A stretch of 64,000 nucleotides of DNA from Proteromonas lacertae (Eukaryota): NCBI GenBank assembly GCA_002245135.1, contig NGBS01000002.1, positions 1 to 64,000 of the forward strand. Reading direction: 5' to 3'. Made by a program: the position numbers and the translations under genes. A model generated the notes under the pieces. That model had not been told where the DNA came from and did not search any database. It saw nothing but the letters and a program-made list of their open reading frames with translations. Below are positions 15,401 to 53,500 of the stretch, one piece after another; the stretch's first letter is position 1; each line of letters begins with the position of its first letter.

Positions 15401-15457
15401 TAATATTTTATAATTATTTATTATATATTTTTCATTCTTTTTCATAAAAAACAATAA

Positions 15458-15465: not shown

Positions 15466-15470
15466 AATAT

Positions 15471-16776: not shown

Positions 16777-16961
16777 CAAATTATTCTTTAAATGCATCTA
16801 TGCAATAAATAAAATTAAAAATACACATCTTTTGAACTGTTTAATGGACCACATCTTGAAATACAGAAGAAATTATAAATTATAATGCAGGATTGATCAG
16901 ATCATGGATAAAATAAAAAAAAGCAAAACAAATCATATATCAATTATTTTTAATTAATAGT

Positions 16962-17881
16962 TTACACTTGCGAATCTGGAGAAGAAACAACTGATGGTAA
17001 AATGTCGATCTTATCATACTTACTCTTCATTTTCATTTTAAATGTAAAATACGAAACAAAAGTACCTAACAAAGCGCCAGCAATTATATCACTATAATGA
17101 TGCATATTATCTCTCTATTTAGCATTAATAAGGATGATAACAATATACTGTTCTTGTTCCACAGATTAACAATGCTCCAATATAAGGAATACTTGAGATA
17201 ATGAATATTAAATAATTGTGTTGTTCTCCAAATCTATTAACTAATACAACATATAAATATAAAGATAAATAACCCATTCCAGCTGTAGATGTTGCAGAAT
17301 GACCAGATGGAAAACTCTTTCTTACATCTTTTAATATATGTTCGTCCTTCATCTGACATTTTGAATAATCACCTAAAACTCCAACAGTTCCATAAGTTTT
17401 GGTTATTTCATTGTAGGGATATAAACATCTACTGAAGAAGACTGGTCTTAATCTACCACAAAACTTTTTCATACATTCAGTTATTGTATAAGTGAATAAC
17501 AAAGCAGCTGCAAAGGTCAATATTGTTTTTTGAAATGACTAACAATCATATCATTATTATATTTAATTTATACAGGATATGAATTAGTACCAGTTTTTCT
17601 TTGCTTACAATACAACCAACTTGAAATTATAACAATTATAACCAACGGAGCAACAATTGCTATTATCACATCAACAGCTGTACTAAGCAGAATATAAACA
17701 ATATATACGAAATAGTCTCTCCTCTGTATGGCAAGGATAAAGCTGGATCACCCTCATAAAACACTGGTTTATTAGGTTCAATGAATAGAGTTATGATCAG
17801 TATTATGCCTGAAACTATAATACTAATCCAATCTGTTATGGTTGTGTCGTTTAATAAACAACTTAAAGTCAAGCTTACCAT
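16962..17881 (-). CDS. PAP2-family lipid phosphate phosphatase, multi-exon
   Basis: All three PAP2 motifs are present: KKFCGRLRP, SFPSGHS and GTR...DNMHHYSDI (across an intron), with transmembrane stretches. TAA at 16964-16962. The start codon is uncertain. Confidence 0.85.
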
Positions 17882-17954
17882 TTGGTTTGAGTAGGTTTTT
17901 GAGAAAAATAAACACAATCTATAAAAAGTCTACATTGAAATTACTTTATTCTAT

Positions 17955-19636: not shown

Positions 19637-19796
19637 GATTTATGGGAAAGATACAAATTAGAATGTTCTTTAGGCTTGATAGATTTGACTTTTTTTTTCT
19701 TAAAAATATGCTGTTTATCAAATCAAAAACAATTTAATTATAGACTCAAGGATAATTTCATTATTTAGAGAATAATAATATAATTAACAATTATAT

Positions 19797-22700: not shown

Positions 22701-23193
22701 CCTCCACTTCCACCAGCAGCAGATGGAAGCCATTCTATTTTAAATTATATAATTATATATAAACAATACACTGAGTACGGTTGATATGCGTTTTGTGGAT
22801 CTTTACCTTCATCTAAATTCTTGAAGTAAGTTTGCCAAGAAGCATCAACTCTATAAAGTAATTAGAATCTTTTCAAAATACGAATTTGGATCAGCTTTCC
22901 ATTGTCTATACAATTCTTCTATAAATATAACACTACTTCCACTTAAGAAAGACTCAGATGGATTGATCTTGGTGGTAATGCTTCTCATCAACATTGCTGA
23001 CATAGATGGAGCAAACTATGGACTAATAAAAAGATAAACTGATACATGGATGGAATTAACTTTGCATCCTAACCTTCCTAGTGCATTAATTGCCTCTAAA
23101 TAAAATATATCAAAATATATTGGAATTAATAATATGTAATTTGATAGTTATACTATTTGTTCTATTCAAGCCACAGAACACTTTATTTAGCAT
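19797..23193 (-). CDS. OGDH: 2-oxoglutarate dehydrogenase E1 component, multi-exon
   Basis: [40 protein letters not shown] (ThDP motif), [24 protein letters not shown] and [10 protein letters not shown] motifs. ATG 23193 ([13 protein letters not shown], presequence-like) is joined through short introns; TAA at 19799-19797. Confidence 0.93.
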
Positions 23194-23596: not shown

Positions 23597-26500
23597 ATGA
23601 GTTTAATTTGCGGAGTATTGAAGGGTCAATCTTGGCTCTTATTGTTCTCAATTGTTTTTGTGTGCGGAGTTGTAGCTGAAGATGATGCTTGTACCGAGTA
23701 CAGCAGTAACAATCAAGAATCTTACTGGTATTACCATCTTTAAATATTTCACTGCTATAGGGTTGATGTACAACAGTGTAGTAATTGTACAAGTCATGTA
23801 GGATGCGGATATTGTTTATCTACTATGACATGTATTTCTGGAAGTGAAGAAGGACCTGCCGGAGGAACTCCTTGCCCCCAGTTTATATATGAAAGTAGTA
23901 GTTGTCCAGGTATATATTTATATTTTATCATATATATTTATATAAATAGTAAAACCTGATTGTGGGATATATGATCAGTTGTGACAAATGTGCTGCTGAT
24001 ACTGAGTGTGCATGGTGTGCTAGTGAGAAGATATGTATGGTTCAATCAGAGGTTGACGGAAAAGGATGTAGAAATCCAATTTACAATACACCATGTCCAT
24101 CCAGTTTTGTTGAGAATAATCGAGTAGTGGGTAATTTGAATACATCTGTAGATCCGATGTATAAGACAGGAGGTGAATTTCACGTAGTAGGTGAAAATAA
24201 TTCTTTTACTATGGATATTGACAAAGAATTTAAAGTTCAATCTGCTAGTAATATTACACTAGAAGCAGGTAATTCAACAATACTTAATTTACCAGGAGGT
24301 AATGTGTCAATAACAGCTGAAAGTGTTGAATTCTATGGTGGTAACAGTAAAGCAGAAAATCCATATGAAAAGAATAATGGTGGTGAAATTGATATTAAAG
24401 GAGGTGATTCTGACTATTCTAAAGGCGGAAATATCAATATGAATGCTGGTAATAGTATTAATAATGTTGGTGGTAGTGTAATATTTGAAAGTGGATCTAG
24501 TAATACCAGTATATCAGGCAATGTGAATATATCAACTGGAGTTGGAAGTATTGAATCAGGAAATACAACACTTCAAACAGGTGAAGCTTATAATGAGACT
24601 GGTTCAATGAAGATTATTACAGGAGATAGTGATAATAAAGCTGGTAATATTAATATACATCCTGGTACGTCATCATCTGCTGAGAGTGGTTCAGTAATTG
24701 GTAATGCAGGTGATGGTATTGATACAACAGAAGGTGGTAGAATTGAGATGAAATCAGGAGGTAGTACTGTTGGTAAGAGTGGTGATATTAACATCAAAAC
24801 TGCAGAATCAGTTAGTCAAAGTGGTGATGCTGTTATTGGAACAGGTGATTCTGTAGATGGTAAAGCTGGAGATGTTAAAGTCAATACTGGTAGTACTAAG
24901 ATAGAGAAATCAGGTGATGTTAAATTTACATCTGGTAATGTTACTGAAAGTGATGGTAAAGTAGGAGATGTGAAATTAGAAGGTGGTGATTCTGCAGGTA
25001 ATGAAAAGACTGTGAGTGGTGAAATTGTATTATTATCTGGCACTACAGAAGCAACTAAACAATCATACTCAAGTATATTTGAGTTAATTGCTGGTTTTAC
25101 ATCCTCATCCTCTCATTTCAGTGCAGGTGGTTCTACTAATGTGAAGACTGGTAAAAGTATGATTAATTCAGGTTCAATCAATATGACTGGAGGTTATGGA
25201 AGATTGAATTCAGGAGGTGTTGTGATAAAGACTAACAACTCAACAATGCAAAGTGGAAATATAGTTATTGGATCTGGAAATAGTACCAATACAACCAGTG
25301 GAAATACCAATATGAAAGGTGGATATGGTCCAGATAAACCATCATTATTAGATTACAGTGTAGGCAAAAGTAGTAAAGAAAAAGGAGGTGATCTTAATAT
25401 GTATTCTGGTATGACATTGATAGAAGCAGCACCGTTGATATTGGCTAATAGAGGCAGTAGAGTTGGTATTAGATCAAGTAAGAGCAAGAATTCTGACAGT
25501 GGAGATGTGAAGTTTAAAACTGCTAATGCCAATAATGGTAATTCTGGTAGAATTAATATTTATACTGGATATACAAGCGAGTATTTATCAGGAGTATATA
25601 ATATATTATTGAAGGAAGCATATGAAGCAGGGCAAATTAAGATGAAAGCTGGTCAAAGTGAGAAGAAAGCTGGAGGAATCAATGCTAAGGCAGGCAAATC
25701 ACTAACAGCTGAAGGTGGTGATGCAAAAATAGAAAGTGGAAATGGTGATGTGATGGGTGGAGATGTTACTATTGTCGGTGGAAAAGGTAATATGACAGGA
25801 GGAAATGTATTATTTGAAGGAGGTAATTCCACTTATATGAAAGGAGGTGATACTTATATTATCGGTGCTAATGTTACTAAAGATGGTTTAGGTGGTAATA
25901 TTGATATGGTTTCTGGTAAAGGTAAATATTTAAGTGGAGATTTAACCATTATCACAGCAAAAGGTGGTTTATTAGGTAAGAGCGGTGATATTCTTATTGC
26001 TACAGCCAATGCAACATTAGCCAGTGGATGGATTGAAATTAATACTGGTGCTGGTTTGAATGGAACTGGTGGAAATATCATATTACATGTTGGTGAAACA
26101 GATTCAGGTTCTGGAGGACATATTGAAATGTTTTCTGGCTCTACAGAAGCAGTTGGTATTGATGGTGGTTATATCTATGTTAGAGCTGGTAATGTTGGTG
26201 ATAATCATAGTTTAGGTAAAGCTGGATCTATTATTATGCAAGGTGGAATCTCAAGAGGTACAAGTCTTATCTCAAGAGGTGGAGATTCTATTATACTTGC
26301 AGGATCAGCTTTCTCTGGAATTGGAGGTAATGTTATTCTTACTGCTAGAAAAGGTAATATCAAGAGTGGTGATGTGATTGTTAAGACACCTAATTCTGGT
26401 ACTGAAGGTCATAGTGGTAATATATTAATGAGAACTGGTCCAGCAACAGCAGAAACATCAGGTACAATCATATTCAACATTAAAGGTGGAAATTTAATCA

Positions 26501-29500
26501 GTGGAAGTATTATCATCAATATTGGTACTGGATATGCTGATAAAGGTGGAGATGTTAAACTTATCAGTGGTGATACTACATCCAAAGATGGAACTGGTGG
26601 TAATATATTATTTCAATCAGGTTCTGGTACTAATACATCATCTACAAGTGGATCTGGTGGTGATATTGAAGTGATTGGTGGTACTGGATATGGTATTAGC
26701 CCTAATAATACTGGAGGTAATGTTACGTTGAAAGCTGGTTATGGTATTGGTGGTCCAGGTGGAGCTATTGAGTTTATTTCTGGACAAGGAAGAATTCAAA
26801 GTGGTTCTATTAAGTTAAGTACTGCTGATTCTGGTTTATTAGGTAGTAGTGGTGCTATTTATATTGAAACTGGTAATACTCAATTATCTCCATCAGGTAA
26901 TATTTCATTTATTACTGGTAAAGCAATAGGTCAAAGTGGTAATATAACAATACATGGTGGTAATTCTGTTAATAAATTAGGTGGTGATATTAATATGACT
27001 GCTGGTAGTACAGTAGATGCAAGTCAATTAGGAGGTAATGTCACAATAACTTCTGGTGATTCTGAGAATGGTGATAGTGGTAATATTTATGTTGCTTCAA
27101 CTAGTTCTGAGAATACTGAACAATCTGGTTCTTTGTCATTTAAGACAGGAAATAGTGATTCTTATAGTGGATCTATTAAATTACATACTGGTAATACTAA
27201 GGATGGTTTGCCTGGATCTATTGTATTATCAAATGGTAAGAGTAATGCTGAAGTATCAGGCAGTATTGATATTAAAGCTGGAGATACTTTAGGTGAAGAA
27301 AAATCAGGAGGAGATATTGCAGTTCATGGTGGTAAAGGTAGTAATACTGATTTCTATTATGGATCAACTGGTGGAGATGTTGAATTTGTTGGTGGAGATT
27401 CACTAGGTCAAAGTCCTAATAATAAAGGAGGAGATGTTGCAATGAAAGGAGGTAAAGCTAATTATGGTGCTGGTGGTAGAATATTGATTGATACTGGCTA
27501 TTCTACTAGATACAATAGTGGTTATATTGAAATGTCTACTGCTAACTCAGGAACTAAAGGAAAGAGTGGTTCAATTGATATGCATACTGGAAATACAAGA
27601 TATGGTTCTTCTGGTTCAATAGCATTTAAGACTGGTGATTCATCAAAACATCAAGCTGGTGTTATTAATATAGATATTGGTTATTCCAATACTGATGGAG
27701 GTAGTATTAGATTTATTGCTGGTGCATCATTGATTGATAATGGTGGAGGTATTTCTTTAATCAGTGGTGAATCTGGTTACAGTAGTGGTGATATTAAGAT
27801 GAAAACAGCTGATTCTAATACAGTTGGTAGATTTGATATTAAAACAGGTGATTCAAAGAATGTTGAAAGTGGAAATATCAATTTAAAAACTGGTGAAGCA
27901 ATGACTTCAAGTGGTAATATAACAGTTGCTAGTGAAATAACAAATGTACATGATGGTGGTAAAATTGATATTAAAACAGGTGATTCAGAAAGTTCAAACG
28001 CTGGTAATATCACTATTCAAGGTGGTAATGCTGATGGTAATTTAGATACAAATGGTGCATCTGTTAGAATGAGAGCTGGTCATAGTTATGGATTGAATGA
28101 ATCTTATTCAGCTGGATCGTTTGTTATGGAAAGTGGTAATTCTACAAATGGATTACCTGGTGTTATTAATATTAAGACTGGAAGTGGTTATGAAGGTACT
28201 GGTTCAATTAATGTAGAAACAACACAATCTGGTGTAATTGGTACTTCAGGAAGTATTGGATTAAAGACTGGTAATGTTACTGAAGTTGGTAAAGCTGGAT
28301 ATATAGTAATTAACACTGGATCATCCAAAACACAAAGTGCTGGTAATATTTCGTTTGTAACTGGTAGTACTACAGTTGGTGAAAGTGGATCTATTACAAT
28401 GAAATCTGATAAGATTGAAATTAATGCTGGTAATGGTGTTAAATATCAAAAAGGAAGTCCAGGTAAAGGAGGCGATTTATCAATGAAATCAGGAAGTAGT
28501 ACTAATGGAACTAGTGGATCAATAGAATTCAAAACAGGAAGTTCAAAAGATAACAGTGGTTCTATTATATTAGAATCTGGCGCAAGCGAAAAACTATCTG
28601 GAAGTATTGCTATAAAGAGTGGTGAAGCTGGTAGTGATGGATATAGTGGTAATATCAATATGAAAACAGGAAAATCAGCGATTAGAGAGACAGGATCTGC
28701 TTTATTTAAGACTGGAGATTCCCATGATGAATTGTCTGGTAGTTTAACCATTAAAGGAGGTAATTCAAAAACATCAACTGGAAGTACAATCAAATTTGAA
28801 AGTGGTAGTACTTTATTAGGTAAAGAAGCTGGTGTAATTGAAATAAAATCAGGAAAAAGTAAATTTGGTAAAAGTGGAGATATTCAAATGTCAACTGCTA
28901 ACTCAAAATCAATTAAATCTGGTGATATGATGTTTAATACTGGAGATGCTGATAAAGAATCAGGTAAATTTACAATGAAAACTGGAAATAGTAAACAAAG
29001 TGGATCAATTGTTGGTAAAGCTGGAGATTCTAGTGATGGAAATGGAGGATCAGTTCATTTTGAATCTGGTTCTACAACAGGAGAAGATGCTAATGGCGGT
29101 AAAATTAATATTAAAGGTGGTGATGTAGAATCTGAAAAAGCTAATAGTGGTGTTGCTGGATCAGTATATTTTGAAGCTGGATCTACTAATAGTGTATTAA
29201 GTAATAGTACAGGTGGTTCTATTGATATTAATGCTGGTAATACAGCATATGGAAAAGGTGGTTCTGCAATTATTGAGTCTGGTTCAAGTAAAAGATCAGA
29301 TTCAGGTTATATTAAATTCGAAACTGGTAGTAATGATAATAACAAGATTACTGGTTCAATCAATATCACTACAGCTACAAGTACAAACACATCTGGTATT
29401 ATCACTATTGAAACAGGTAATTCAACCAAACAAGCTGGAAATATTGATTTTGTTGCTGGTAAATCCAATCATCAACAAGGAGGAAATGTATCTGTTAATA

Positions 29501-32500
29501 CTGGTTCAGGGAATGAAAGTGGTAATATAATGTTTAAAGCTGGAAAGAGTAATACAACAAGTGGAAATATTGATATTAAAACACCATCTTCTGTTGAACA
29601 ATCTGGATCAATCAAATTCAATACTGGAGATGGTAATAAAGCTGGTGATATAAAGATTATATCTGATTCAAACTCTTCTTATGTTGAAATTAATATGATT
29701 GCAGGAAATAGTAAAATTGAAGAAGGTGGTTATATTAAGATCAATGCTGGTGCATCTGAGAATAAACAAGGAGGATCTGTTGAATTGATTAGTAAAGATG
29801 GAATGAATGTTAAAACATCATCTTCAAAACAACATAGTGGATCAATGAACTTCAATACTGGTGATTCAAAAGATAGTAACTCTGGTGATATTAATATACA
29901 AACTGGATCTTATGGTGATTCAAAAGTAGGTGATATAAATATTCAAACAGGAGACGGTGATAGAAATAAAGGTGGTGATATTAAGTTTTCTGCTTCAAAT
30001 ACAACATCAAAAGATGGTAAAGCTGGTGATATATCCATCAAATCAGGAAGTAATGAAGATGGAGGAATTGCAGGAAATATGACTTTTGAATCTGGTTCAA
30101 GTTTAGATAAATCATCAACTGGCGGAAATATAGAAGTATCTGGAGGTAATAGTTTATCTGGAAATGGTGGTGATGTTGAAATGCAATCTGGTAATGGTAC
30201 ATCTAAAACAGGTGATATTACATTAGAAACTGGTTCATCTCAAAAAATAAGTGGTAATATCTCGATCACTACAAGTAATGCTAGATTTGAATCAGGTAAT
30301 ATTACAATAGAAACAAAAGAATCAAATAATACTTCAGGATCTATTTCATTCAATATTAATAAAGCCAATAAAGTAGGTGGAAATATTACTGTTACAGCAG
30401 GTAAAGGAACTTATAGTCAAGGTGGAAATATTGATGTAAAAGGAAACAATGTTGATTTTGTTGGTAATCAAGGAATTGAACAAAGTGGAAATATTAATAT
30501 TAATACTGGTGATTCTATATCATCTCCATCAGGTAGTATTAAAGTTCATACAGGTGAAAGTAATGGTGAAGGTGGTAATATTGGTTTTAAAGCTGGAAAT
30601 ACTTTATCTGAAGAAGGAAGTAAAATAGTTTTTTCAAGTGGTAATTCAACTGCCTATGATGGAATTGGAGGAGATTTAATAGTTGAATCTGGATCAGGAA
30701 CAAGTAAAGGAGGTGATCTATTAATGTCAAGTGGAGATAGTAATACAACTAAACCAACCATTGCAGTAAATATTAATACAGGTTCATCTACTACAGAGAA
30801 TAGTGGATCTCTTAGATTTAAGAGTGGAGAAGCTGGAAATAATGGTATTTCTGGTGATATAAACATACAAACAAGTGATTCATTACTATCATCTGGTGAT
30901 ATGATTATTAATTCAGGAAAAAGTAAAGATAATAGTGGTGCTATAAATATGAAAACTGGAGATGGTAAAATAACAGGTAGTTTAGATATTACAACAGGTG
31001 ATAGTGAATCAAAGAAATCTGGAACTATAAAGTTTGAAACTGGTTCATCTAATTTAATTGCTGGTTCTATTAAGATAGAAACTGGTAAATCTGATAATCA
31101 ATCAGGAGATATAAAGATGAATGCTGGTAAAGGATTAGGAGATTCAACTGATGGTGGAAAGATCGAAATGATTTCTGGAAGTAGTTTAAAAGGTGAAAGT
31201 GGTAAAATAAATATTAATACTGGTAAAGGAAAAGAATCTGGTTCTATTTTAATAGAAACTGGAGAATCAAAGAAGGATAATAGTGGAAATATTAGATTTG
31301 AAACTGGATCATCTGTGAATAATGCTGCTGGTTCTATGTTTATTGAAATTGGAGAATCTATTAATAGTGAAGGTGGAAGAATAGTTATTAATTCAGGTTC
31401 TTCAAATGGTAATAAAGGTGGAGATATTAATGTAAGAACTGGTAAAAGTTTACAAAGTGGAAGTGGAACAATTAAGTTAATATCTGGTGAAGGTAAGAAA
31501 TCTGGAAACATTCAATTAAAATCAGGAAATGGTGAAATAATAAGTGGTAATGTTGAATTTAAATCAGGTGATGCTAAAGATATTGCTGGTTCAATAGTCA
31601 TTGAAACCGGTTATTCTGAAAGTGGTGAAACTGGTAGTTTAGAATTTAAAGGTGGATCTTCAAAAGGTACAAAAGCTGGAGATGTAAATCTATCATCTTC
31701 TAATAATGTTAATATTGAAACTGGTAAAACTAATGGATATGCTAAATCTGGTAATATTGATATAGAAACAGCTTATTCATCTCAAGTTACAGGAAATGTA
31801 GAAATTGTGACAGGTGATTCTCGTATATTGAAAGCTGGAGATTTACATGTTAAAGTCGGTGATGCTAAGAATGTAGGTGGCGATGTTAATTTCAAAGCAG
31901 GAAATGTTATTCCAGATGTTGATAATACTAAAACTGTAGGTGGAAAAATATCATTAAGTACTTCCAAAAAGATTAATACATCCAGTGGAAAAATAGTGAT
32001 TAACACCAATGATGGAGGTGCAAGTGGATCAATAAAGTTAGAAACAGGTGATAGTGAGAAAGGATCATCTGGTGATATAAATATTGATGTTGGTTCAAGC
32101 AATTCTTCTGAAAGTGGTTCAATGGAAATAAAAGCTGGTTCAAGTTTAAGTGGGAAAGGAGGTAAGATTTTAATAAATGCCGAAAGTGGTAAAATCGAAT
32201 TATTGAGTAATGATGGTATGAAAGGAAGTGGTTCAATCAATATGAGTAGTTATGGTGAAATCTTAATTGAAAGTGGTTACAATAACAGTAAATCTAACAG
32301 TAGTATAATTTCGTTTAAGACAGGTGATAGTTCAAAGATGGGAAGTGGTTCAATTTCTATTGAAGGTGGAAACAATACTAAAAGTACAGGAAGTTCAATT
32401 CGAATGATTGGTGGTGAATCAATAAATGGAAATGGAGGCAATATTAGTTTATCAAGTGGAAATTCTGAAGAGGATCAAGGTGGAAATCTAATAATCGAAA

Positions 32501-35500
32501 GTGAGAAATCTTTGAATGGAACAAGTGGTTCAATATTGATAAGTAGCTCCAAAGGCAAAGACAGTGGTGATATTGAAATCGAGAGTGAAGAAAGTGAATT
32601 ATCGTCAAGTGGTTCAATCAATGTGAAAATTGGTTCTAGTTCTGGTGAAAGTGGAAATATAACCTTTATGAGTGGAATAAGTGAAGAAAGTGATGGAAGT
32701 GAAATTTTAATCGAAAGTGGTAAAAGTAAATCTACAAGTGGTTCAATAAAATTCGAGAGTGGAAATGGTGTAACCAGTGGATCAATAACGTTGAAGAGTT
32801 CTGATTCCTTATCAAGTGGTGAATTATTGATGGAAAGTGGATCTAGTAATTCCAGTTCTGGCGATGTGAATGTGAAGAGTGGAAGTGGAAAAGAGATGAG
32901 TGGATCAATCTTATTGAAAGGAGGAAACAGTACAAATGTAGGTGGATCAATAAATTTTGAAGCTGGAAATGGAGATGAAAAAGGTGGAAATTTGACTTTA
33001 AGAAGTGGATCAAGTCAAAAAGAAAGTGGAAATATAAAACTGTCAAGTGGAAATGGTTTAATAAGTGGATCAATCATATTAGAAAGTAAATCTTCTCAAA
33101 ATATTTCATTGAAGAGTGGATCTGGAAATTACAGTGGAATAATCTCATTTAAGAGTGGTGAAGAAGGTGGTTCAATCTCAATGCGAGGAGGTAAATCAGA
33201 AGTAAATAGTGGTTCAATCAAATTATCTAGTGGTTCAAGTGATGATAAGAGTGGATCAATTGATATAAAGAGTGGATCTGGAATAGAGAGTGGTTCAATA
33301 AAGATTGAGAGTGGTATAAGTGAAGAAAAGAGTGGTTCAATATCTTTGAAAAGTGGAGATAGTTCTAAATCTCAAAGTGGTGATATAATATTTGAGAATG
33401 GTAAAAGTATGAAAGAAGGAAGTTCAATCTTATTAAGTAGTGGAAACAGTAGTTTATCTGATGGTGGTAATATTTTAATGGAAAGTGGTGAAAGTATGAA
33501 AAATGAAAGTGGACTAATCTCTATTCGTAGTTCTGATAGTGATCTAGGTGAAAGTGGAAAGATCTCCTTGACAACAGGTGTAAGTGATAAAGAAAGTGGC
33601 AATATCAGTATCAGTAGTAGTGGTAATTTCAATGAAAGTGGTTCAATTGAATTTGAGAGTGGTTCCATGAAGAATGGAGGAATAAGTGGTTCAATAAAAT
33701 TAAAGAGTGGAATGAATAAAGGTAGTAATATCGAAATAAGTGAAAGTAATGAAATTGCTGGAAGTAATATAACAATGTCCAGTGGAGTAGGTGATAGTTT
33801 AGGAGGAGATTTGTTAATATCTAGTGGAAATTCCTCAATGATAGGTGGTAATATAACAATTCATTCTGGTTCTAAAAATGAAAGTGGTTCAATAAAGATA
33901 TCTAGTAAATCTAGTTCCTATATAAGTGGATCAGTGGAATTAAGAAGTGGTATATCAAAATCTGGAAATAGTGGATCAATCGATATAGAAGGAGGTGATG
34001 TAAAAAATAAGAATGGTGGATCAGGTGGTTCCGTTGAATTCGTAGGAGGTAATTCCAAATCTTTATACAGTAGTGGAGGTAATATTGAAATGAATGGAGG
34101 TGAAAGTGAAAATGGAGTTGGAGGTAGTGTTCATTTGAAAAGTGGAAAGAATGGTGGAATAATTGAGATTGAAAGTGGTTCAAGTAAAGGTAATACAAAT
34201 CGTGAATCTAATAGTGGTTCAATTCGACTATCGAGTAGTGGAAGTGAGATGGGAATAGGAGGAAATTTAAATATCCGAAGTGGAGATGGTTTATCTAGTG
34301 GTAAAATCTCAATTGAAAGTGGTAAATCTGATTTAAAATCTGGAAATCTAAACATCAATGTTGGAAATGGAATAAATGAAGGTAAAATAGTTGTGAATAC
34401 AAAAGAAGCTGATATGAAATCTGGTTCAATAGATATTCAGACTGGTGATGCCGTTTCTACTACTGGTAGTATTGCTATTTTAACTGAAAATATTGAATTA
34501 TCAACATCAGGTGCTAAGAATATTTCAAGTGGAAGAATAGTGATAGGTACAAGTGATGGTGATATTAGTGGATCAATAAAGTTAGAAACAGGTGATAGTG
34601 AGAAAGGATCATCTGGTGATATAAATATTGATGTTGGTTCAAGCAATTCTTCTGAAAGTGGTTCAATGGAAATAAAAGCTGGTTCAAGTTTAAGTGGGAA
34701 AGGAGGTAAGATTTTAATAAATGCCGAAAGTGGTAAAATCGAATTATTGAGTAATGATGGTATGAAAGGAAGTGGTTCAATCAATATGAGTAGTTATGGT
34801 GAAATCTTAATTGAAAGTGGTTACAATAACAGTAAATCTAACAGTAGTATAATTTCGTTTAAGACAGGTGATAGTTCAAAGATGGGAAGTGGTTCAATTT
34901 CTATTGAAGGTGGAAACAATACTAAAAGTACAGGAAGTTCAATTCGAATGATTGGTGGTGAATCAATAAATGGAAATGGAGGCAATATTAGTTTATCAAG
35001 TGGAAATTCTGAAGAGGATCAAGGTGGAAATCTAATAATCGAAAGTGAGAAATCTTTGAATGGAACAAGTGGTTCAATATTGATAAGTAGCTCCAAAGGC
35101 AAAGACAGTGGTGATATTGAAATCGAGAGTGAAGAAAGTGAATTATCGTCAAGTGGTTCAATCAATGTGAAAATTGGTTCTAGTTCTGGTGAAAGTGGAA
35201 ATATAACCTTTATGAGTGGAATAAGTGAAGAAAGTGATGGAAGTGAAATTTTAATCGAAAGTGGTAAAAGTAAATCTACAAGTGGTTCAATAAAATTCGA
35301 GAGTGGAAATGGTGTAACCAGTGGATCAATAACGTTGAAGAGTTCTGATTCCTTATCAAGTGGTGAATTATTGATGGAAAGTGGATCTAGTAATTCCAGT
35401 TCTGGCGATGTGAATGTGAAGAGTGGAAGTGGAAAAGAGATGAGTGGATCAATCTTATTGAAAGGAGGAAACAGTACAAATGTAGGTGGATCAATAAATT

Positions 35501-38500
35501 TTGAAGCTGGAAATGGAGATGAAAAAGGTGGAAATTTGACTTTAAGAAGTGGATCAAGTCAAAAAGAAAGTGGAAATATAAAACTGTCAAGTGGAAATGG
35601 TTTAATAAGTGGATCAATCATATTAGAAAGTAAATCTTCTCAAAATATTTCATTGAAGAGTGGATCTGGAAATTACAGTGGAATAATCTCATTTAAGAGT
35701 GGTGAAGAAGGTGGTTCAATCTCAATGCGAGGAGGTAAATCAGAAGTAAATAGTGGTTCAATCAAATTATCTAGTGGTTCAAGTGATGATAAGAGTGGAT
35801 CAATTGATATAAAGAGTGGATCTGGAATAGAGAGTGGTTCAATAAAGATTGAGAGTGGTATAAGTGAAGAAAAGAGTGGTTCAATATCTTTGAAAAGTGG
35901 AGATAGTTCTAAATCTCAAAGTGGTGATATAATATTTGAGAATGGTAAAAGTATGAAAGAAGGAAGTTCAATCTTATTAAGTAGTGGAAACAGTAGTTTA
36001 TCTGATGGTGGTAATATTTTAATGGAAAGTGGTGAAAGTATGAAAAATGAAAGTGGACTAATCTCTATTCGTAGTTCTGATAGTGATCTAGGTGAAAGTG
36101 GAAAGATCTCCTTGACAACAGGTGTAAGTGATAAAGAAAGTGGCAATATCAGTATCAGTAGTAGTGGTAATTTCAATGAAAGTGGTTCAATTGAATTTGA
36201 GAGTGGTTCCATGAAGAATGGAGGAATAAGTGGTTCAATAAAATTAAAGAGTGGAATGAATAAAGGTAGTAATATCGAAATAAGTGAAAGTAATGAAATT
36301 GCTGGAAGTAATATAACAATGTCCAGTGGAGTAGGTGATAGTTTAGGAGGAGATTTGTTAATATCTAGTGGAAATTCCTCAATGATAGGTGGTAATATAA
36401 CAATTCATTCTGGTTCTAAAAATGAAAGTGGTTCAATAAAGATATCTAGTAAATCTAGTTCCTATATAAGTGGATCAGTGGAATTAAGAAGTGGTATATC
36501 AAAATCTGGAAATAGTGGATCAATCGATATAGAAGGAGGTGATGTAAAAAATAAGAATGGTGGATCAGGTGGTTCCGTTGAATTCGTAGGAGGTAATTCC
36601 AAATCTTTATACAGTAGTGGAGGTAATATTGAAATGAATGGAGGTGAAAGTGAAAATGGAGTTGGAGGTAGTGTTCATTTGAAAAGTGGAAAGAATGGTG
36701 GAATAATTGAGATTGAAAGTGGTTCAAGTAAAGGTAATACAAATCGTGAATCTAATAGTGGTTCAATTCGACTATCGAGTAGTGGAAGTGAGATGGGAAT
36801 AGGAGGAAATTTAAATATCCGAAGTGGAGATGGTTTATCTAGTGGTAAAATCTCAATTGAAAGTGGTAAATCTGATTTAAAATCTGGAAATCTAAATATC
36901 AAAACTGGTGGAGGTAAATCCTCTGGAAGTATTAAATTTGAATCAAAAGATGCTCCAATTACTGGATCTATAAAGATCGAAACTGGTGAAGCACTATCTA
37001 ATACTCCAATAATTGATAAAAATAATCAACAAGTCAATAGTATGTCAGGTAATATCACTGCTATTACTGGTGCTAATAAATTCAATGAAAGTGGTTCGAT
37101 ATTATTGCAATCAGGTAATTCAGATAAATCAGGTGAAGTTAATATCCGAACTGGTAATTCTGATGATAATTCTGGTTATATTAAGATGAAAGCTGGTGAT
37201 GCTAATAGAATACCAGGTAGTATTAATATTAAAACTGGTGATAGTAAAAATGGTAATGCTGGTAGTATAAATGTATTAGGAAATGCAACAGATTTAGCTG
37301 GTGCTAATATTAATTTACTATCAGGAAGTGGAAGCAATGATTCAGCAAGTGGAAGTATTTCATTCACTACAGGAAATGATAAATCTAAAATCTCAGGATC
37401 AATTGATATTGAAACTGGTAGTACAGCCAAAACCTCATCTGGTTCAATTGAATTTATTACTGGTAATGCAGCTGAAGGAAATGCTGGTTATATTTTAATA
37501 AAAGTAGGTAAATCAAAATCATCAGAAGGAAAAGAATTGTTAATCGAAAGTGGTTCATCTAAGAAAATGGGTGGTTCTATTAAATTAAAGAGTGGATCTG
37601 GTAAAATTTCAGGAGGTATTTATATCCAATCAGCTGATGGTAAACAATCAGGAAACATCAATATGAAAACAGGAAATGCTGAATACAAATCTGGAGATAT
37701 GAATTTAAAGAGTGGAAGTGGTGGTATATACGGTGGTAAATTGAATATTAAGACAGGAACAAGTACAGCAAAGAAAGGAGCTGATGTAGCAATTCATGCT
37801 GGTGATTTATATGTTGATTCAAATATGCCATATAATTTTGTATCAGGTGGTGATTTATCTGTTGAAACTGGTTCAGGAAATGAAGGAAGAAGTGGTTCAA
37901 TGTATTTTGAAACACAAAAAAGCGAAAAGAGAGGAAAAAGTGGAGATATTGTGTTTGAAACTGGTGATGTAAAAGATGCAATAGCTGGATCAATAATTAT
38001 TCAAACTGGTAATTCAACAGATGAAGGAGTCAGTGGTAATATTTCCTTGAAGGTAAATGATGGTGTTAATGGTGCTGGTTCAATTAATATGAAAGCTGGA
38101 ACTTCTCTTAGTGAAAATGGTGGTAATTTTATATTAGAAACTGGTTCAAGTGGTAATTTTAGTGGTAATATCAATTTGAAGAGTGGTGATGGAAAATCAA
38201 AAGCTGGTTCAATATTCATTGAAACTGGTGAAGGTAAAAAACAATCTGGTAATTTGACTATTAATACTGGTGATGCTGATAAAGAAAGTGGATCAATAGA
38301 AGTTCATGGTGGTAAATCAGATAATGGAATTGCTGGTTCAATTGATATGAAAGCTGGAGATAGTAGAACTAAAGAAGGTGGATCAATATTAGTTAAAAGT
38401 GGTAATGGTACAACAGGTGGAAATATAGTAATGAAAACATCCAGTAAAAAAGGATCTTCAGTATCAATGAAAATAGGAGATGGAAGAGATGGTTCTTCAT

Positions 38501-41500
38501 TCAAATTGATTGATTTCAATAGTACAGTTAGAGTGAATATTCAAGATAAAGGTGCAATGCATCTAGAAACTTTAGCCAATGAAACTATTAATGAAATAAT
38601 TGGTGGATCAAAGACAGTTGAGTTAAGTCAATTGAAATCTGAATGGAAAATTAGACATGATTATGCTGAAGGATTAGAAGGACCTCTTCGTACAGTATTT
38701 AGAGTCCAATCCAATAAAATATTCTCTCATGTTCCACATCAAATAGTTGAAGATATTTATCCATCTGATAGACGTATTAAAGAGAATATTGAAACAATCA
38801 ATGTGGATGATATGCTACAACGTTTAATGAGTTTAAAGATCAAATCTTACACTTATACACAAGAATGGATTAAAGTTCGTGAAATGAAATCTGGTGATTG
38901 GGGTACAGATCAAAGTCATCCAGTTCGTGGTGTTATAGCTCAAGAAGTAAATCAAACATTCCCTGAATATATTATTTATGATGAGAAATATGAAATTCCT
39001 GAAAAGAACTTCTCAATTTCTAGTTTCCTTGAAGTTAATAAGATTCGAATGGCTGTTGATGAACTTGCAGCATTACAAGCAATATATAAGAGATTTACAA
39101 TTGTTAAAAATACTGATCGATCAAGTGATTTAGTTGTTTCATCATCCAATGCAACTGATTATAATGTAGAATCATCAGGATCATTGACATTCAGTTCAGG
39201 TAAGACCAATACTGGTATTGTAGGTGATTTTTCTGTAAAGACTGGAAATGGTAAGATTAAAGCAGGAGATATTGTTTTCCAACCTGGAACATCTGCTGGT
39301 GAAATTGGTAGAATCATTATACAAGCTGGTGAATCATTTAGTGGTTATTATACAGGTGGTGATGTATTGATTGATTCAGGTAAATCAGAAACTGAAAATA
39401 GTGGTGATGTTTTAATAATTACTGCTGAATCAATGAATACTGGAAGTTTATCAGTTGTAAGTGGAAAAGCATATAATGGTAAGAGTGGTGATATAACAAT
39501 GAATAGTGGTAAATCATCAGAATCATCTGGCGATTTTTACTTGTCTACTGGAAATAGTATCCAAGCAACACCAGGAAAAATAGTCATTAATACAGGTACT
39601 TCATCTAATGGTGAAAGTGGTAGTATTTATATAGCTTCAGGTTCAGGAAGTCAAAGTTCTGGTGTAATTGTGATAGAAACATATACAAACAAGATAAGTG
39701 GTAGTATTAATATCAATACTGGTATTAGTAATAATGATATGTCTGGTAGTATTGATTTTATTGGATCTGAAGTGAATGTTATTCCAGGTGATTCTGTAGA
39801 GAAAGCTGGATCATTAAATGTAAAAGCAGGTAATGCAATTTATACTGGTGGAAGTATTAGAATTGAAAGTGGTGAAGGTAATGATAAATCTGGATCTACT
39901 TTAATAGCAACAGGGCAAAGTGGAGAGAAGAGTGGTTCAATAACATTTGAAACTGGAGATTCAATTACAAATGATGCTGCAAATATTCGAATTGAAACTG
40001 GTAAATCTGGTAGAGAATCAGGTCAAATAATGATTGAAAGTGGTGCAGGTGTGATTCCTGGTTCAATAGCGATTGATGCTGGTTCTTCTAATAGTATTGG
40101 TGGATCTATATCCGTTCATTCAGGTAATTCTCTAAACAAAAAGAGTGGAGATGTTTCATTAGAAACATCAGAATCAAGTAAAACAAGTGGAAATATCTTA
40201 GTTAATACTGGTAAAGGTGAATCTACAAGTGGAAATATCCTTATTAAATCAGGTGATTCTAAAGAATCTAGTGGTAATATAACAATCAATGCTGGTGATA
40301 ATAAATATGATGGTAGTTCAGTTTATTTCGAAGCTGGAAAAGGCAATAAATTAGGTGGTGGTTCAATTGACATTAAATCAGGATATTCGGATAATAAGAG
40401 TGGTTATATAAGTATTACAACTGCAGAATCTAAATTTGGAAGTGGTTCATTATCTATCAAAACAGGTGAAAGAACCACCAACTCAGGATCAATCAAATTA
40501 GCAACAGGTGAAAGTAATATGATAAGTGGTTCAATAAAGATTAAAAGTGGAAATAGTGATGAGGATACAGGTTCAATTAGTTTTACAACAGGAAAGAGTA
40601 TGAATTCTTTATCTGGAGCATCACTTGTATTAGAATCATCTACTGAATCTGGTACAATTAAATTAAAATCTGCTTCAGGATTATCAGTTGGTGGATCTAT
40701 TGATATAACATCTAAAAATACTGTAAATGGAGGTGATATTAAATTAACAACAAAAGGATTAGAAACATCAGGAAGTATTGAATTTAGAACTTCCAATAGC
40801 AGAGGTAATAGTGGTAAAATCAAAGTAGCTACAGGTGATTCGACATACAATTCTGGTAAGATTGATGTATCATCATCATCAATTGAAATAAAAGGTGGAG
40901 AATCAAATAGTGCAAAACAAGGTGGAAATGTAGAATTTGTAGCAAGTGGAAAGAGAGACGGTGTAAGTGGAAATATTGAAGTTAAAGCTGGTGATAGTAC
41001 TCATAGTAAAGGTGGATCGTTGAATATTGAAAGTGGTTTTGGTTCAGATGATGGTGGTTTATTAGCATTCTTGAATATGAATGGAGGTATTTATATCAAT
41101 ACTCCAGAATCTAAGTCAAGTGGAGATATTAAAATTAGTTTAGAAAAGAGTGAAGTTTCAGGCAATATTACATTTATGAATGAAAATAAGAGTGGTAATA
41201 AAGTATTAACTATTGAGACTGGTTCTGGTCAATCAAAATCAGGAGTTATTGATATTGAAGGTGGATCGAGTGCATTAATAGGTGGTAATGTAACTGTCAA
41301 TGTTGTTACATCAAAATCAACAAATATTGGCAATTTAAAAATTGAAAGTGGTTATTCTAAATTACAAACAGGTAGTATTAGTATTAATACTACAGATTCA
41401 AGAGTAAGTGGTAATATTAATATCAAAACAGGTGATTCTGATAAAACAGGAAATATAGTAATAAAAGCTTCTGATATTAGTATGAAATTAGGTAAATCAG

Positions 41501-47500: not shown

Positions 47501-50500
47501 CTGGTAAAGCATCAGGTGGATCAGTATCTGTTTCTACAGGTGTTGGTCAAACTTCTGGTTCGATTGAATTCTTAACAGGTTTAGCAAAACAAGCTGGAAG
47601 TATAGCAATTATATCGGGAGATTCTAACTTACAACCTGGACTTATTACTATTGCAGGTAGTGAAGGTAAAAGTAATGGAGGAGAATTATTCATTAAATCA
47701 GGTGGTGTTACTAATGGAGATGGAACAACTGGTAGTATTACAATTACCACCCATTCAGGTAGTTTTACATCTGGAGATATTATGATTAATACAGGTTCTA
47801 GTAGTATTAACAGTGGTGAGTTGTATTTGAAAGGTGGTTTTGGAAGTAGTAGCGGAGGTTCAATTTATCTATCTAGTGGAACAAGTACAAATGGTGGATC
47901 AATAATAGTAGCTACAGGTACAGCTAGTGCAACACCCGGTTCGATTTTATTTGAAACTGGTGGTGCAAATTCTGCTGGTTCTATTTCAATTTATACTGGA
48001 GATGCTACTTCAACAGTTGGAATGATTAATATAATGTCTGGTGCAGCATCAGAAAGTGGATCAATTAATGTAATAGCTGCACATGGTACAACCACTAGTG
48101 GTTCTATCTTCTTAAATACATTTTCATCTTCTGATGTAGGTAGTATTTTAATAAATGTAGGAGATGGATTAACAACAGCTGGATCTATATTCATCAAATC
48201 AGGAAGTGGCACAATTGGAGGATCTATTGAGGTAGTTACAGGAAAAGGCATAACAAGTGGAAGTGTTTTTATTCAATCAGGATCAGGTAAGAGTACTGGA
48301 GGTGAAATTAATATTATTGGTGGTTCTGGTACTAATACAGGTGGTTCACTTTTCTTTTATGGTGGAAGTGGAGTTACACATGGTGGTGACATATTAATAG
48401 AATCTGGTTCAGGTACTTCAAGTGGTGAAATAACTATTAGCAGTGGAAGTAGTTCTATAGTAGGTTCAATCATATTAGAAGGTGGTAATGGTTTAAGTGT
48501 TGGTGGAGAAATCTTTTTATCTGGAGGAAGTGGAAGTGTAGGTGGTTCAATAACCTTAGAAAGTGTAGAGAATCTATTTGTGAGTGGAAATGAAGGTGTA
48601 ACATTTGGTGGATCAATATTAATCTCAACTGGTTCATCTACATCCACAAGTGGATCAATCTTTATCGAAAGTGGAAGTGGTAGTTCAAATGAAGGAAGTT
48701 CAATAAATATTTCTAGTAAAGGTACTATTACAAGTGGATCAATATCGATAAAAACTGGTGATAGTTCAACAGCTGGTGATATAAAAGTCAAAGTAGAAAA
48801 GAGTGTAGAAATAGGTGGATCAATCAATATTGAAAGTGGAAGTGGTACATCTGGTGGTAAAATTTCTATCGAAAGTGGAACTGGTACTACAAATAGTGGT
48901 TCAATACAAATCAAAGTATCTGATGGAAATACAAGTGGTTCAATATTAGTAACTGGAGGAAGTAGTTCAACCACAGGTGGCAGTATTTTTATAAAAGGTG
49001 GTTCAAGTACAATTGGAGGAAGTATAATAATAAATTCTGCAAGTGGTTTAACAACAAGTGGAATAATAAATATCAAAAGTATTAATTCTTTAGAATCTGG
49101 ATCAATCAGTATAACAGGAGGTGATAGTACAAGTAAGATTGGAGGTGAAATCTTAATCGAAAGTGGTAGTGCTGCTATATCCTCTGGTTCCATATCAGTG
49201 AAAAGTGGCAATGGTGGAAGTGAAAGTGGTTCAATCTTAATCGAAAGTCATGGAAGTAGTGCATCTGGTTCAATAACATTATCAACTGGTGATTCTGATA
49301 AAAATAATGATAATGGTATGATAAAATTGGAAAGTGGAAGTGGAACAGAAGGTGGTTCGATAATGATAATAAGTGGAAGTGGTAATAAAACTGGAGGTTC
49401 AATCTATTTAGAAACATCTGCTGCCTCAACCAGTGGTGAAATATTAATAAATAATGGTAAATCAACAGGATCTGGATCAACTGGTGGATCATTGTTTATC
49501 GAAAGTGGAAGTGGTGGAACAAATGGTGGCTCAATATTATTGAAGAGTGGCGATAGTACTAATGAAAGTGGTTCAATCAATATAGAAATATCTGATGCTT
49601 CTAAGACAAGTGGTAGTATATTAATATCCAGTGGTAATGGTTCTGAAAAAGGTGGAGAAATCTTAATGGAAAGTGGAAGTGGTGGAAATTATGGTGGTTC
49701 AATCTTAATAAAATCAAGTTCAGGAAGTGATGCAAGTGGTGAAATCAAAATAAGAAGTAAAGACAGTTCTATAGTAGGTTCAATCATATTAGAAGGTGGT
49801 AATGGTTTAAGTGTTGGTGGAGAAATCTTTTTATCTGGAGGAAGTGGAAGTGTAGGTGGTTCAATAACCTTAGAAAGTGTAGAGAATCTATTTGTGAGTG
49901 GAAATGAAGGTGAAACATTTGGTGGATCAATATTAATCTCAACTGGTTCATCTACATCCACAAGTGGATCAATCTTTATCGAAAGTGGAAGTGGTAGTTC
50001 AAATGAAGGAAGTTCAATAAATATTTCTAGTAAAGGTACTATTACAAGTGGATCAGTTACAATTCGAACTAATGATTCTAATGACTCTGGTGATATTAAA
50101 ATTGTTAATGGTGATGCTTCATTTACTGGTGGTTCTATATTCTTTAGAGCTGGTTCTGCTAATGTTGGTGGATCAATATTGATAGAAACATCGGAAAATA
50201 ATGTAGGAGAAACTGGAGAGATATTTATTAATACAAATAATGGATCAACGGTGGGTTCTATATTAATATTTACCGGAATATCTGATTCAGTCAGTGGATC
50301 AATCTTTATAGAAAGTGGAAGTGGTTCTAGTGATGGTGGTGTAATTAGTATTTCTAGTAAAGGTACTATTACAAGTGGATCAATATCGATAAAAACTGGT
50401 GATAGTTCAACAGCTGGTGATATAAAAGTCAAAGTAGAAAAGAGTGTAGAAATAGGTGGATCAATCAATATTGAAAGTGGAAGTGGTACATCTGGTGGTA

Positions 50501-53500
50501 AAATTTCTATCGAAAGTGGAACTGGTACTACAAATAGTGGTTCAATACAAATCAAAGTATCTGATGGAAATACAAGTGGTTCAATATTAGTAACTGGAGG
50601 AAGTAGTTCAACCACAGGTGGCAGTATTTTTATAAAAGGTGGTTCAAGTACAATTGGAGGAAGTATAATAATAAATTCTGCAAGTGGTTTAACAACAAGT
50701 GGAATAATAAATATCAAAAGTATTAATTCTTTAGAATCTGGATCAATCAGTATAACAGGAGGTGATAGTACAAGTAAGATTGGAGGTGAAATCTTAATCG
50801 AAAGTGGTAGTGCTGCTATATCCTCTGGTTCCATATCAGTGAAAAGTGGCAATGGTGGAAGTGAAAGTGGTTCAATCTTAATCGAAAGTCATGGAAGTAG
50901 TGCATCTGGTTCAATAACATTATCAACTGGTGATTCTGATAAAAATAATGATGATGGTATGATAAAATTGGAAAGTGGAAGTGGAACAGAAGGTGGTTCG
51001 ATAATGATAATAAGTGGAAGTGGTAATAAAACTGGAGGTTCAATCTATTTAGAAACATCTGCTGCCTCAACCAGTGGTGAAATATTAATAAATAATGGTA
51101 AATCAACAGGATCTGGATCAACTGGTGGATCATTGTTTATCGAAAGTGGAAGTGGTGGAACAAATGGTGGCTCAATATTATTGAAGAGTGGCGATAGTAC
51201 TAATGAAAGTGGTTCAATCAATATAGAAATATCTGATGCTTCTAAGACAAGTGGTAGTATATTAATATCCAGTGGTAATGGTTCTGAAAAAGGTGGAGAA
51301 ATCTTAATGGAAAGTGGAAGTGGTGGAAATTATGGTGGTTCAATCTTAATAAAATCAAGTTCAGGAAGTGATGCAAGTGGTGAAATCAAAATAAGAAGTA
51401 AAGACAGTTCTATAGTAGGTTCAATCATATTAGAAGGTGGTAATGGTTTAAGTGTTGGTGGAGAAATCTTTTTATCTGGAGGAAGTGGAAGTGTAGGTGG
51501 TTCAATAACCTTAGAAAGTGTAGAGAATCTATTTGTGAGTGGAAATGAAGGTGTAACATTTGGTGGATCAATATTAATCTCAACTGGTTCATCTACATCC
51601 ACAAGTGGATCAATCTTTATCGAAAGTGGAAGATGGTACTGCTATTGGATCAATAAGTATACTTAGTAAAGGTACTATTACAAGTGGATCAATATTGATG
51701 AAAACTGGTGATAGTAAAAATCTTTCAGGTGACATTGAGATAAATGCCGAAAAAGAAATAGAAATATTAGGTGGAACATCTGTGATGGGTGGTTCTGCAT
51801 CTATAAAAAGTGGATCAAGTACATCAAGCAGTGGTTCAATCTTTTTATCAAGTGGTTCAATAACAATAAAAAGTGGGCAATCATCCACAACAAGTGGAAG
51901 TATCTACTTAAATGGAGGAAGTGGACCAGAAGGTGGTTCGATAATGATAATAAGTGGAAGTGGTAATAAAACTGGAGGTTCAATCTATTTAGAAACATCT
52001 GCTGCCTCAACCAGTGGTGAAATATTAATAAATAATGGTAAATCAACAGGATCTGGATCAACTGGTGGATCATTGTTTATCGAAAGTGGAAGTGGTGGAA
52101 CAAATGGTGGCTCAATATTATTGAAGAGTGGCGATAGTACTAATGAAAGTGGTTCAATCAATATAGAAATATCTGATGCTTCTAAGACAAGTGGTAGTAT
52201 ATTAATATCCAGTGGTAATGGTTCTGAAAAAGGTGGAGAAATCTTAATGGAAAGTGGAAGTGGTGGAAATTATGGTGGTTCAATCTTAATAAAATCAAGT
52301 TCAGGAAGTGATGCAAGTGGTGAAATCAAAATAAGAAGTAAAGACAGTTCTATAGTAGGTTCAATCATATTAGAAGGTGGTAATGGTTTAAGTGTTGGTG
52401 GAGAAATCTTTTTATCTGGAGGAAATGGAAGTGTAGGTGGTTCAATAACCTTAGAAAGTGTAGAGAATCTATTTGTGAGTGGAAATGAAGGTGTAACATT
52501 TGGTGGATCAATATTAATCTCAACTGGTTCATCTACATCCACAAGTGGATCAATCTTTATCGAAAGTGGAAGTGGTAGTTCAAATGAAGGAAGTTCAATA
52601 AATATTTCTAGTAAAGGTACTATTACAAGTGGATCAATATCGATAAAAACTGGTGATAGTTCAACAGCTGGTGATATAAAAGTCAAAGTAGAAAAGAGTG
52701 TAGAAATAGGTGGATCAATCAATATTGAAAGTGGAAGTGGTACATCTGGTGGTAAAATTTCTATCGAAAGTGGAACTGGTACTACAAATAGTGGTTCAAT
52801 ACAAATCAAAGTATCTGATGGAAATACAAGTGGTTCAATATTAGTAACTGGAGGAAGTAGTTCAACCACAGGTGGCAGTATTTTTATAAAAGGTGGTTCA
52901 AGTACAATTGGAGGAAGTATAATAATAAATTCTGCAAGTGGTTTAACAACAAGTGGAATAATAAATATCAAAAGTATTAATTCTGTAGAATCTGGATCAA
53001 TCAGTATAACAGGAGGTGATAGTACAAGTAAGATTGGAGGTGAAATCTTAATCGAAAGTGGTAGTGCTGCTATATCCTCTGGTTCCATATCAGTGAAAAG
53101 TGGCAATGGTGGAAGTGAAAGTGGTTCAATCTTAATCGAAAGTCATGGAAGTAGTGCATCTGGTTCAATAACATTATCAACTGGTGATTCTGATAAAAAT
53201 AATGATGATGGTATGATAAAATTGGAAAGTGGAAGTGGAACAGAAGGTGGTTCGATAATGATAATAAGTGGAAGTGGTAATAAAACTGGAGGTTCAATCT
53301 ATTTAGAAACATCTGCTGCCTCAACCAGTGGTGAAATATTAATAAATAATGGTAAATCAACAGGATCTGGATCAACTGGTGGATCATTGTTTATCGAAAG
53401 TGGAAGTGGTGGAACAAATGGTGGCTCAATATTATTGAAGAGTGGCGATAGTACTAATGAAAGTGGTTCAATCAATATAGAAATATCTGATGCTTCTAAG

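Follow-up and report, generated by a model that had tools for sequence, protein, structure and literature searches.

How can a chain of many thousands of residues, made almost wholly of one short repeat, fold and obtain its length? The question is raised by a locus of the protist Proteromonas lacertae. The stretch analysed, hereafter the window, comprises 64,000 nucleotides (contig NGBS01000002.1 of assembly GCA_002245135.1, positions 1 to 64,000 of the forward strand). It contains a giant repeat-rich gene with a non-repetitive island at 38761-39093, which an initial annotation had taken for a self-cleaving Peptidase_S74/ICA chaperone inside a secreted, homotrimeric fibre protein. Here, we show that this ICA domain carries its catalytic and supporting residues, that it is placed between two repeat shafts in a gene with introns, and that it belongs to a family. 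We consider it probable that the gene is the host's own and encodes a giant, likely secreted protein, that three of its chains form a triple beta-helix fibre, and that the internal ICA sets their register and likely cuts them before Ser 38764.

The island is a Peptidase_S74/ICA domain

The island lies in a plus-strand open reading frame (ORF) of 9,237 codons (23953-51666) that runs unbroken through DNA of 32% guanine plus cytosine (GC), and the segments YPSDRRIK, GVIAQEV and FLEVNKIRMAVDELAALQAI are all within it. The Pfam profile search gave a significant match to Peptidase_S74 (PF13884) at 52 bits and an E-value of 8.5e-14, against a Pfam cut-off of 22; with the domain alone the score was 54.7 bits. 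Among solved chains, phmmer retrieved the ICA of MYRF (7dc3, E 8.2e-8), with the cleavage motif, Y-x-Y, GVIAQE and FLxVNK aligned. These matches confirm the identification of the island as Peptidase_S74/ICA. The Pfam profile MYRF_ICA (PF13887) gave no match at E≤0.5.

Both catalytic residues, Ser at 38764-38766 and Lys at 38779-38781, were found where they had been placed at the outset. They form a Ser-Lys dyad in S-D-x-R-x-K, and the supporting residues in Y-x-Y, GVIAQ and F-x-x-V-N-K are all present. The window ICA thus has equivalents of S587, R590, K592, Y615, Y617, I637, Q639, F666, V669 and K671 of MYRF, whose roles come from the structural study of that protein (PMC8326128; here and below, the cited papers are represented by excerpts). 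MYRF is cut between P586 and S587 (PMC8326128), and the predicted cut in the window protein, between Pro and Ser (38763 and 38764), is at the equal site. By analogy, cleavage before Ser 38764 is likely. Over the 122 ICAs of the family described below, Ser is conserved in 99, Asp in 119, Arg in 118 and Lys in 108.

A family ICA profile run over all six frames of the window found this single ICA (E 1.7e-44; next 2.7) and no second one. No transmembrane helix was found in the three gene frames within the window, where the top 19-residue hydropathy values are 1.61, 1.21 and 1.39.

The domain lies between two shafts of a giant gene

Beyond the long ORF, two other plus-strand frames (51578-53920 and 53811-63998) carry the repeat gene on to the open 3' end of the window. 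The total exceeds 13,000 codons with the 3' end lying farther on, and the picture of a single protein requires read-through of three apparent one-base indels. The chain upstream of the catalytic Ser measures about 5,030 residues, and a further 8,412 codons lie between this Ser and the window end, in agreement with the part lengths first estimated.

In the 9,237-codon ORF we counted 551 anchors of the form G-x-[IVLMF]-x-[IVLMF]; 409 of the 550 spacings are 13-15 residues, the mode of the period is 14, and Gly and Ser together make up ~37% of the residues. Ser or Thr is frequent at unit positions 2, 7, 10 and 14. The I-x-I periodicity is kept over 9,000 residues, with a similar consensus on either side of the ICA. 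The sole long gap between anchors in this ORF spans 209 residues (4867-5076) and is the island itself; the second largest is 51 residues, and the frames that come after contain no gap above 55. That the repeat body holds only one long non-repetitive island is therefore borne out.

All parts of the gene are on the plus strand. The upstream repeat shaft (24160-38496, ~4,780 residues, 279 anchors) consists of ~14-residue units, G-[SND]-I-x-I-x-[ST]-G-x-[SG]-x-x-x-S, and includes a 2.4-kb duplication of 99.3% identity. It leads into a pre-ICA beta-meander module (38497-38727), the last ~30 residues of which align across the ICA family. The ICA domain (38764-39093) ends in a C-terminal helix encoded at 39040-39093, and is followed by the downstream shaft (39178-64000), which has at least 8,270 codons, is open at the window end and switches frame at ~51632 and ~53808 within near-identical duplications.

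At the N-terminal head are two Cys-rich modules set apart by short GT-AG introns. Exon 1 (23597-23727) opens with the start codon at 23597 and encodes a predicted signal peptide, the hydrophobic core of which ends at about residue 27 (11-residue hydropathy up to 2.9), as expected of the secreted protein that had been proposed. Intron 1 (23728-23760, 33 nucleotides) interrupts a Trp codon following a Tyr. Exon 2 (23761-23909) encodes the first module, which scores 17.1 bits against Pfam PSI and is matched by tblastn in the metagenome loci L022, L023, L002 and L008. Intron 2 (23910-23949, 40 nucleotides) has GT-AG splice signals, and the second module (23950-24120) scores 21.6 bits. We call both modules PSI-like, since their scores are below the Pfam PSI cut-off of 23.1 bits. 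Of the PSI-tipped N-terminal fibre envisaged at first, the two modules stand in this weaker form, while their place at a tip was an assumption.

The second PSI-like domain contains the first of the apparent indels, near 23975, and is a single continuous frame in the relative L023. At the other two, 51632 and 53808, the assembly has one A more in a short A-run than the duplicate copies of the same sequence. An extra A in a short A-run is a typical error of long reads. Judged from the sequence, all three one-base frame breaks are probable assembly errors. The gene also has internal duplications at 31975-36902, 48362-54207 and 55275-63331, mostly of 97-99.8% identity, which would represent either recent repeat expansion or an assembly artefact.

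Structure predictions point to a trimer

The AlphaFold2 model of 38290-39279, built from 78 sequences, has a mean predicted local distance difference test (pLDDT) score of 86 and shows the beta-meander, with strands at residues 70-146 of the model, followed by the ICA with its C-terminal helix. Foldseek places the MYRF ICA (7dc3, E 2.8e-7) first, followed by those of T5 (4uw8) and K1F (3gud/3gw6). In the three-copy prediction the score is 0.85, where the best control reached 0.00; at least 95% of the contacts agree between runs, and pLDDT is at least 74. In line with the homotrimer that had been postulated, the ICA with its flanking repeats is predicted to form a homotrimer. Helix 251-268 of the model is within the predicted interface, and the confident inter-chain contacts extend to repeat residues 2-51 and 276-319, on both sides of the ICA. 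Against the mark used for this score, 21 of 30 solved homodimers passed and none of 23 monomers did; among eukaryotic proteins 17 of 29 passed, yet only one of the 7 for which no older solved relative exists.

In the monomer model the repeats flanking the ICA have a pLDDT of ~80 and are assigned no secondary structure, as would be expected if the partner strands belong to other chains. A repeat-only model, aligned from 54 segments of the protein itself, has a pLDDT of 78, and DSSP returned nothing for it. Compared with 48,161 chains (VIA), this model gave 7 matches with Z of 2.3-4.0, the best being VgrG (6sjl; 98 residues aligned, root-mean-square deviation 3.2); all 7 are VgrG, phage or Streptomyces hyaluronidases, a tailspike or the dystrophin-glycoprotein complex. 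Most of these chains are intertwined triple beta-helices. The repeat model also resembles uncharacterised phage proteins in BFVD (best E 1e-3, TMq 0.65), and its leads in the ESM Atlas are all below 0.9 and unnamed. By sequence, the repeat region has no match in the PDB or in phages. Taken as models, these results are consistent with, but do not strongly show, an intertwined triple beta-helix of three chains.

The window gene is one member of a wide family

Searched exhaustively, a set of 1.84 billion representative sequences gave 141 matches to the island, 79 of them at E≤1e-10, and in most the ICA is likewise set among these repeats. Queried with the island, word-index protein searches had found none among proteins of 5,080-16,165 residues (67 candidates) or below 5,080 residues (7,986 scored), and since the exhaustive search gave 141 matches we attribute these blanks to the prefilter. 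The family profile search took in proteins of 246-2,000 residues. From the pooled proteins and loci, 174 domains scored at least 100 bits on the family profile. The catalytic site is spanned by 166; 133 of them differ from one another, and a 95% identity limit reduces the set to 122. Rather than a peculiarity of one protist, there is a wide family of related ICAs, and by its sequence the window gene is one member with the same layout.

Repeats follow the ICA in 64 of the 69 family domains that could be evaluated, and three of the five misses have repeats by eye. They are on both sides of the ICA in all 22 evaluable loci of the set L001-L038, nine of these being near-copies. The four metagenome loci examined for it (L002, L008, L022 and L023) all have a PSI head upstream and a first-intron donor that matches that of the window gene, which indicates that the whole layout is conserved.

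The Ser-Lys dyad is intact in 99 of the 122 family ICAs, and several relatives have more than one ICA in the same frame: four in L004 (1-15145; spacing 2,380, 590 and 590), three in protein P0001 (spacing 389 and 365), and two in P0002 and in loci of the L013-L020 type (~1,914 apart). Intact and dyad-less ICAs are mixed within L004, P0001 and P0002. These two to four ICAs per relative, some dyad-less, suggest that the nodes may act as folding restarts and, if intact, as programmed cut sites. In L004 an identical ICA copy recurs 1,180 residues apart.

Among the 29 family proteins looked up, those with informative names come from Phytophthora infestans, Nothophytophthora, Aphanomyces astaci, A. 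euteiches and Achlya hypogyna, and one EukProt entry of the family is labelled Alexandrium. Two members, P0130 and P0032, carry 'tail fiber' labels from archaeal metagenome-assembled genomes; they are on 3-kb contigs and are probably mis-binned eukaryotic sequences. In two loci, L001 (1-11334) and L003 (1-6652), the only stops in the coding frame are TAG (25 in 3,778 and 10 in 2,217 codons), with no TAA or TGA. As these TAGs fall mid-repeat and the frame runs on past them, TAG is probably read as an amino acid in the hosts of these loci.

We built ICA trees of 102 and 97 rows over 122 columns, with 45 family rows picked by score and flanks. The smaller tree omits five long rows retained in the larger and gives the same result, with bootstrap support that is not fully settled. 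The 45 family ICAs form one side of a branch, apart from the MYRF rows (Shimodaira-Hasegawa-like approximate likelihood ratio test 99; 100/100), and a joint clade of the family with MYRF was not rejected (approximately unbiased test, p 0.61). The MYRF-like character suggested at the outset therefore survives in part: 7dc3 is the closest solved match by sequence and by fold, but PF13887 is unmatched and the family has a tree group of its own, for which a joint clade with MYRF was not rejected.

Genomic neighbourhood

A compact cluster of housekeeping genes at 4958-22744 adjoins the giant gene. It encodes a MIF4G/MA3 protein, GlnRS, a GRP94-type Hsp90 with a KDEL-like DEL end, a BTB-BACK protein, ARM repeats, PP2C, PAP2, phosphoacetylglucosamine mutase and the E1 component of 2-oxoglutarate dehydrogenase (OGDH). 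Introns in this neighbourhood are 31-50 nucleotides long, recalling those of Blastocystis. The sequence TGTTTGTT occurs at 15458-15471, 5 nucleotides past the PP2C stop, which is the distance at which the polyadenylation motif of Blastocystis is reported; this is a weak sign, seen at one of 8 ORF ends. There are 5 TGTTTGTT motifs in the 64 kb, well under the one per 3 kb reported for Blastocystis.

Comparison with known ICA proteins

Among ICAs with a solved structure, that of the window protein is most similar to the ICA of MYRF and Dictyostelium MrfA, with which it shares the Pro-Ser site, the supporting residues and the internal position (PMC8326128, PMC3742443). In MYRF the ICA remains on the C-terminal product; besides the ICA, the protein comprises a DNA-binding domain, a short stalk and one transmembrane helix, and a transcription factor is released from it on the cytosolic side (PMC8326128, PMC3742443). 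The window protein, in contrast, is predicted to be luminal or secreted and has thousands of repeat residues on either side of the ICA. Pfam gave no match to NDT80/PhoG in 23953-33552 or 38401-39300, and 33553-38400 is unbroken repeat. Orthology to MYRF was rejected, as the segments scanned gave no NDT80/PhoG domain, the window has no transmembrane helix and the ICA is in a separate tree group.

In the K1F endosialidase (3gw6) and T5 pb1 (4uw8) of phages, an S74 chaperone-protease with S-D-x-x-x-K comes after a trimeric beta-helical fibre, an arrangement that is predicted here as well. The MAT fibres of Bdellovibrio are, like the window protein, cellular proteins with a signal peptide (PMC10769870). 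S74 ends the chain in phage fibres, in MAT fibres (typically ~1,000 residues) and in the fibres of polinton-like viruses (up to 3,900 residues), where such a C-terminal chaperone is common (PMC10769870, PMC12220804). The window ICA differs from all of these in being followed by at least 8,400 residues, and its relatives repeat the ICA up to four times.

Closest in overall plan is the trimeric glycofibril TLP-12 of the CryoSeek preprint (10.1101/2025.09.30.679562), which has a solved 12-residue repeat and for which Amoebophrya candidates of ~20,000 residues were put forward (e.g. A0A8J1ZHD7), with a C-terminal ICA proposed to drive folding. Like the window protein, these are giant Gly/Ser-rich repeat proteins of protists with a proposed three-chain beta fibre and an ICA. 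They differ in that TLP-12 has a GSxxSx7 repeat, a C-terminal ICA and alveolate candidates, whereas the window protein has a repeat mode of 14 and an internal ICA. Tandem GSxxSx7 has no match in the 9,237-residue ORF. Membership in TLP-12 was rejected, since the tandem GSxxSx7 is missing and the period is 13-15; we regard the window protein as working like TLP-12 without being a member.

The same ICA subfamily and the same repeats are found in oomycete entries named 'Peptidase S74 domain-containing protein' (PITG_01491 of Phytophthora infestans, and entries of Aphanomyces astaci and Achlya hypogyna), and unnamed entries of A. euteiches and Nothophytophthora likewise have this ICA amid these repeats. 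The oomycete entries are annotated at 300-860 residues and without function, whereas the window gene is far longer; they are probably fragments of a giant gene. Open-access main texts yielded no mention of PITG_01489-01492. As to a role in flagellar hairs or zoospores, S74 terms were absent from the supplements of PMC3471859, PMC12223298 and PMC12221091 and from two 2026 preprints. Among the matches listed from the open-access literature, subscription papers being outside the scope, none describes a protist fibre with a PSI head or with an internal or repeated ICA, and the excerpts of the TLP-12 preprint report no PSI head, no internal or repeated ICA and no cleavage products. For the architecture that the initial annotation did not recognise we found no earlier report in this PSI-headed, internal or multi-ICA form, although giant ICA fibres as such are already in print. 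Since TLP-12 had been proposed, we confine novelty to the internal, repeated ICA and the PSI head; the idea of a giant secreted eukaryotic ICA fibre is prior.

Discussion

We argue that the mechanism first envisaged for this protein is probably right. By analogy with the ICAs of MYRF and of phages (PMC8326128, PMC3742443, PMC10769870), three chains would meet at the ICA helix in the endoplasmic reticulum, and the ~5,030 residues upstream would then zip into a fibre. The Ser-Lys dyad would subsequently free this upstream fibre, whose two ends would be the PSI-like pair and, as a new C-terminus, the beta-meander. The ICA would stay on the C-terminal product as in MYRF, capping the second shaft, which is 8,400 residues or longer, and holding its register. 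An internal folding node would suit so long a chain, since its first third could already be folded while the remainder is still being translated. When the ICA is released from a phage fibre, the end that becomes free is the binding tip (PMC10769870), so the PSI-like pair may be the base of the fibre and not its tip. The products would most likely be O-glycosylated extracellular filaments, such as a surface coat, hair or adhesive thread.

Several observations speak against this mechanism or weaken its support. The repeat-only model has no Foldseek match in the PDB, and the fold matches that were obtained for it are weak, none reaching Z≥5. That the three-copy prediction passed may be memory, because ICA trimers are already solved. 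The predicted C-terminal helix of the ICA is ~18 residues long, compared with ~36 (K705-N670) in MYRF (PMC8326128). The dyad is missing from 23 of the 122 family ICAs with the rest of the domain kept, which implies that cleavage is dispensable in some copies. The copy of the gene in the window has three frame breaks, and the C-terminus, a possible site of an anchor or a further ICA, is beyond both the window and the loci of relatives that were inspected.

The main rival is that the ICA serves as a trimer-folding node only, remaining uncut in the cell or leaving its halves bound, which would give one continuous fibre with a kink or bead. The dyad-less ICAs, the mixing of intact and degenerate ICAs in multi-ICA genes and the repeats of similar consensus on both sides of the domain would all fit such a node. 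We nevertheless think it unlikely: lineages far apart have retained the dyad, which is intact in 99 of 122 domains, and the window ICA has every residue shown to be important in MYRF (PMC8326128). Cut halves need not stay joined either, because the ICA of MYRF barely touches its upstream stalk (PMC8326128). It is also conceivable that the repeats are a single-chain beta-solenoid or a disordered, mucin-like chain, and that the ICA alone trimerises and bundles three independent strands. The lack of a strong fold match for the repeat model and the low-complexity composition with its ~37% Gly and Ser would agree with this, but it is made improbable by the confident monomer models that assign the repeats no secondary structure, by the inter-chain contacts predicted along both repeat flanks and by the I-x-I period that persists over 9,000 residues.

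A different doubt concerns the gene itself. The three frame breaks, one of them inside PSI-like domain 2, and several internal duplications of 97-99.8% identity could mean that the window copy is a decaying pseudogene or that its size is inflated by assembly error. Decay sits poorly with 9,237 unbroken codons at 32% GC and with an intact dyad, signal peptide and splice sites, and the duplicate copies lack the extra A at two of the three breaks; we regard this account as very improbable. Hardly any likelihood is left for an endogenised fibre gene of a polinton-like or giant virus. The C-terminal S74 of polinton-like virus fibres and the likeness of the repeat model to phage proteins in BFVD would be its support, but the neighbours are housekeeping genes (GlnRS, GRP94-type Hsp90, PP2C, OGDH), the gene has a signal peptide and an intron that recurs in four other loci, and the matches in IMG/VR (5 loci), in GTDB (9 loci) and in INPHARED (1 record) were all to generic S74 domains, at 24-37% identity. 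A viral origin of the window copy was rejected on the grounds of its introns, its housekeeping neighbours and the lack of close viral or prokaryotic relatives in these scans.

We thus return to the three-chain fibre with an internal, likely self-cleaving ICA as the favoured reading. A bolder extension, which we offer tentatively and with rather low confidence, is that these genes are old, stramenopile-wide giant secreted fibre polyproteins, in which ICA nodes both fold and cut, so that a chain of at least 13,000 residues yields several triple-beta-helix filaments with lengths fixed by the ICA spacing. These could be the yet unassigned thin surface filaments of stramenopiles; if so, the terminal filaments of tripartite flagellar hairs, the threads of zoospores or cysts and fibrillar coats would be the candidates.

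Eukaryotic ICAs have been known from MYRF-type transcription factors and, since the 2025 preprint (10.1101/2025.09.30.679562), as predicted C-terminal domains of giant alveolate fibrils. The family described here would be a third eukaryotic use of the domain, ranging from oomycetes to many uncultured protists, in which the ICA is internal, at times repeated and at times catalytically dead. A fragment containing the ICA is of a size that can be expressed and tested. The family suggests an answer, open to test, to the question of how a beta-helix of three very long chains folds and gets its length, and would provide candidate genes for unexplained surface filaments of protists and for unassigned fibrils in environmental cryo-EM.

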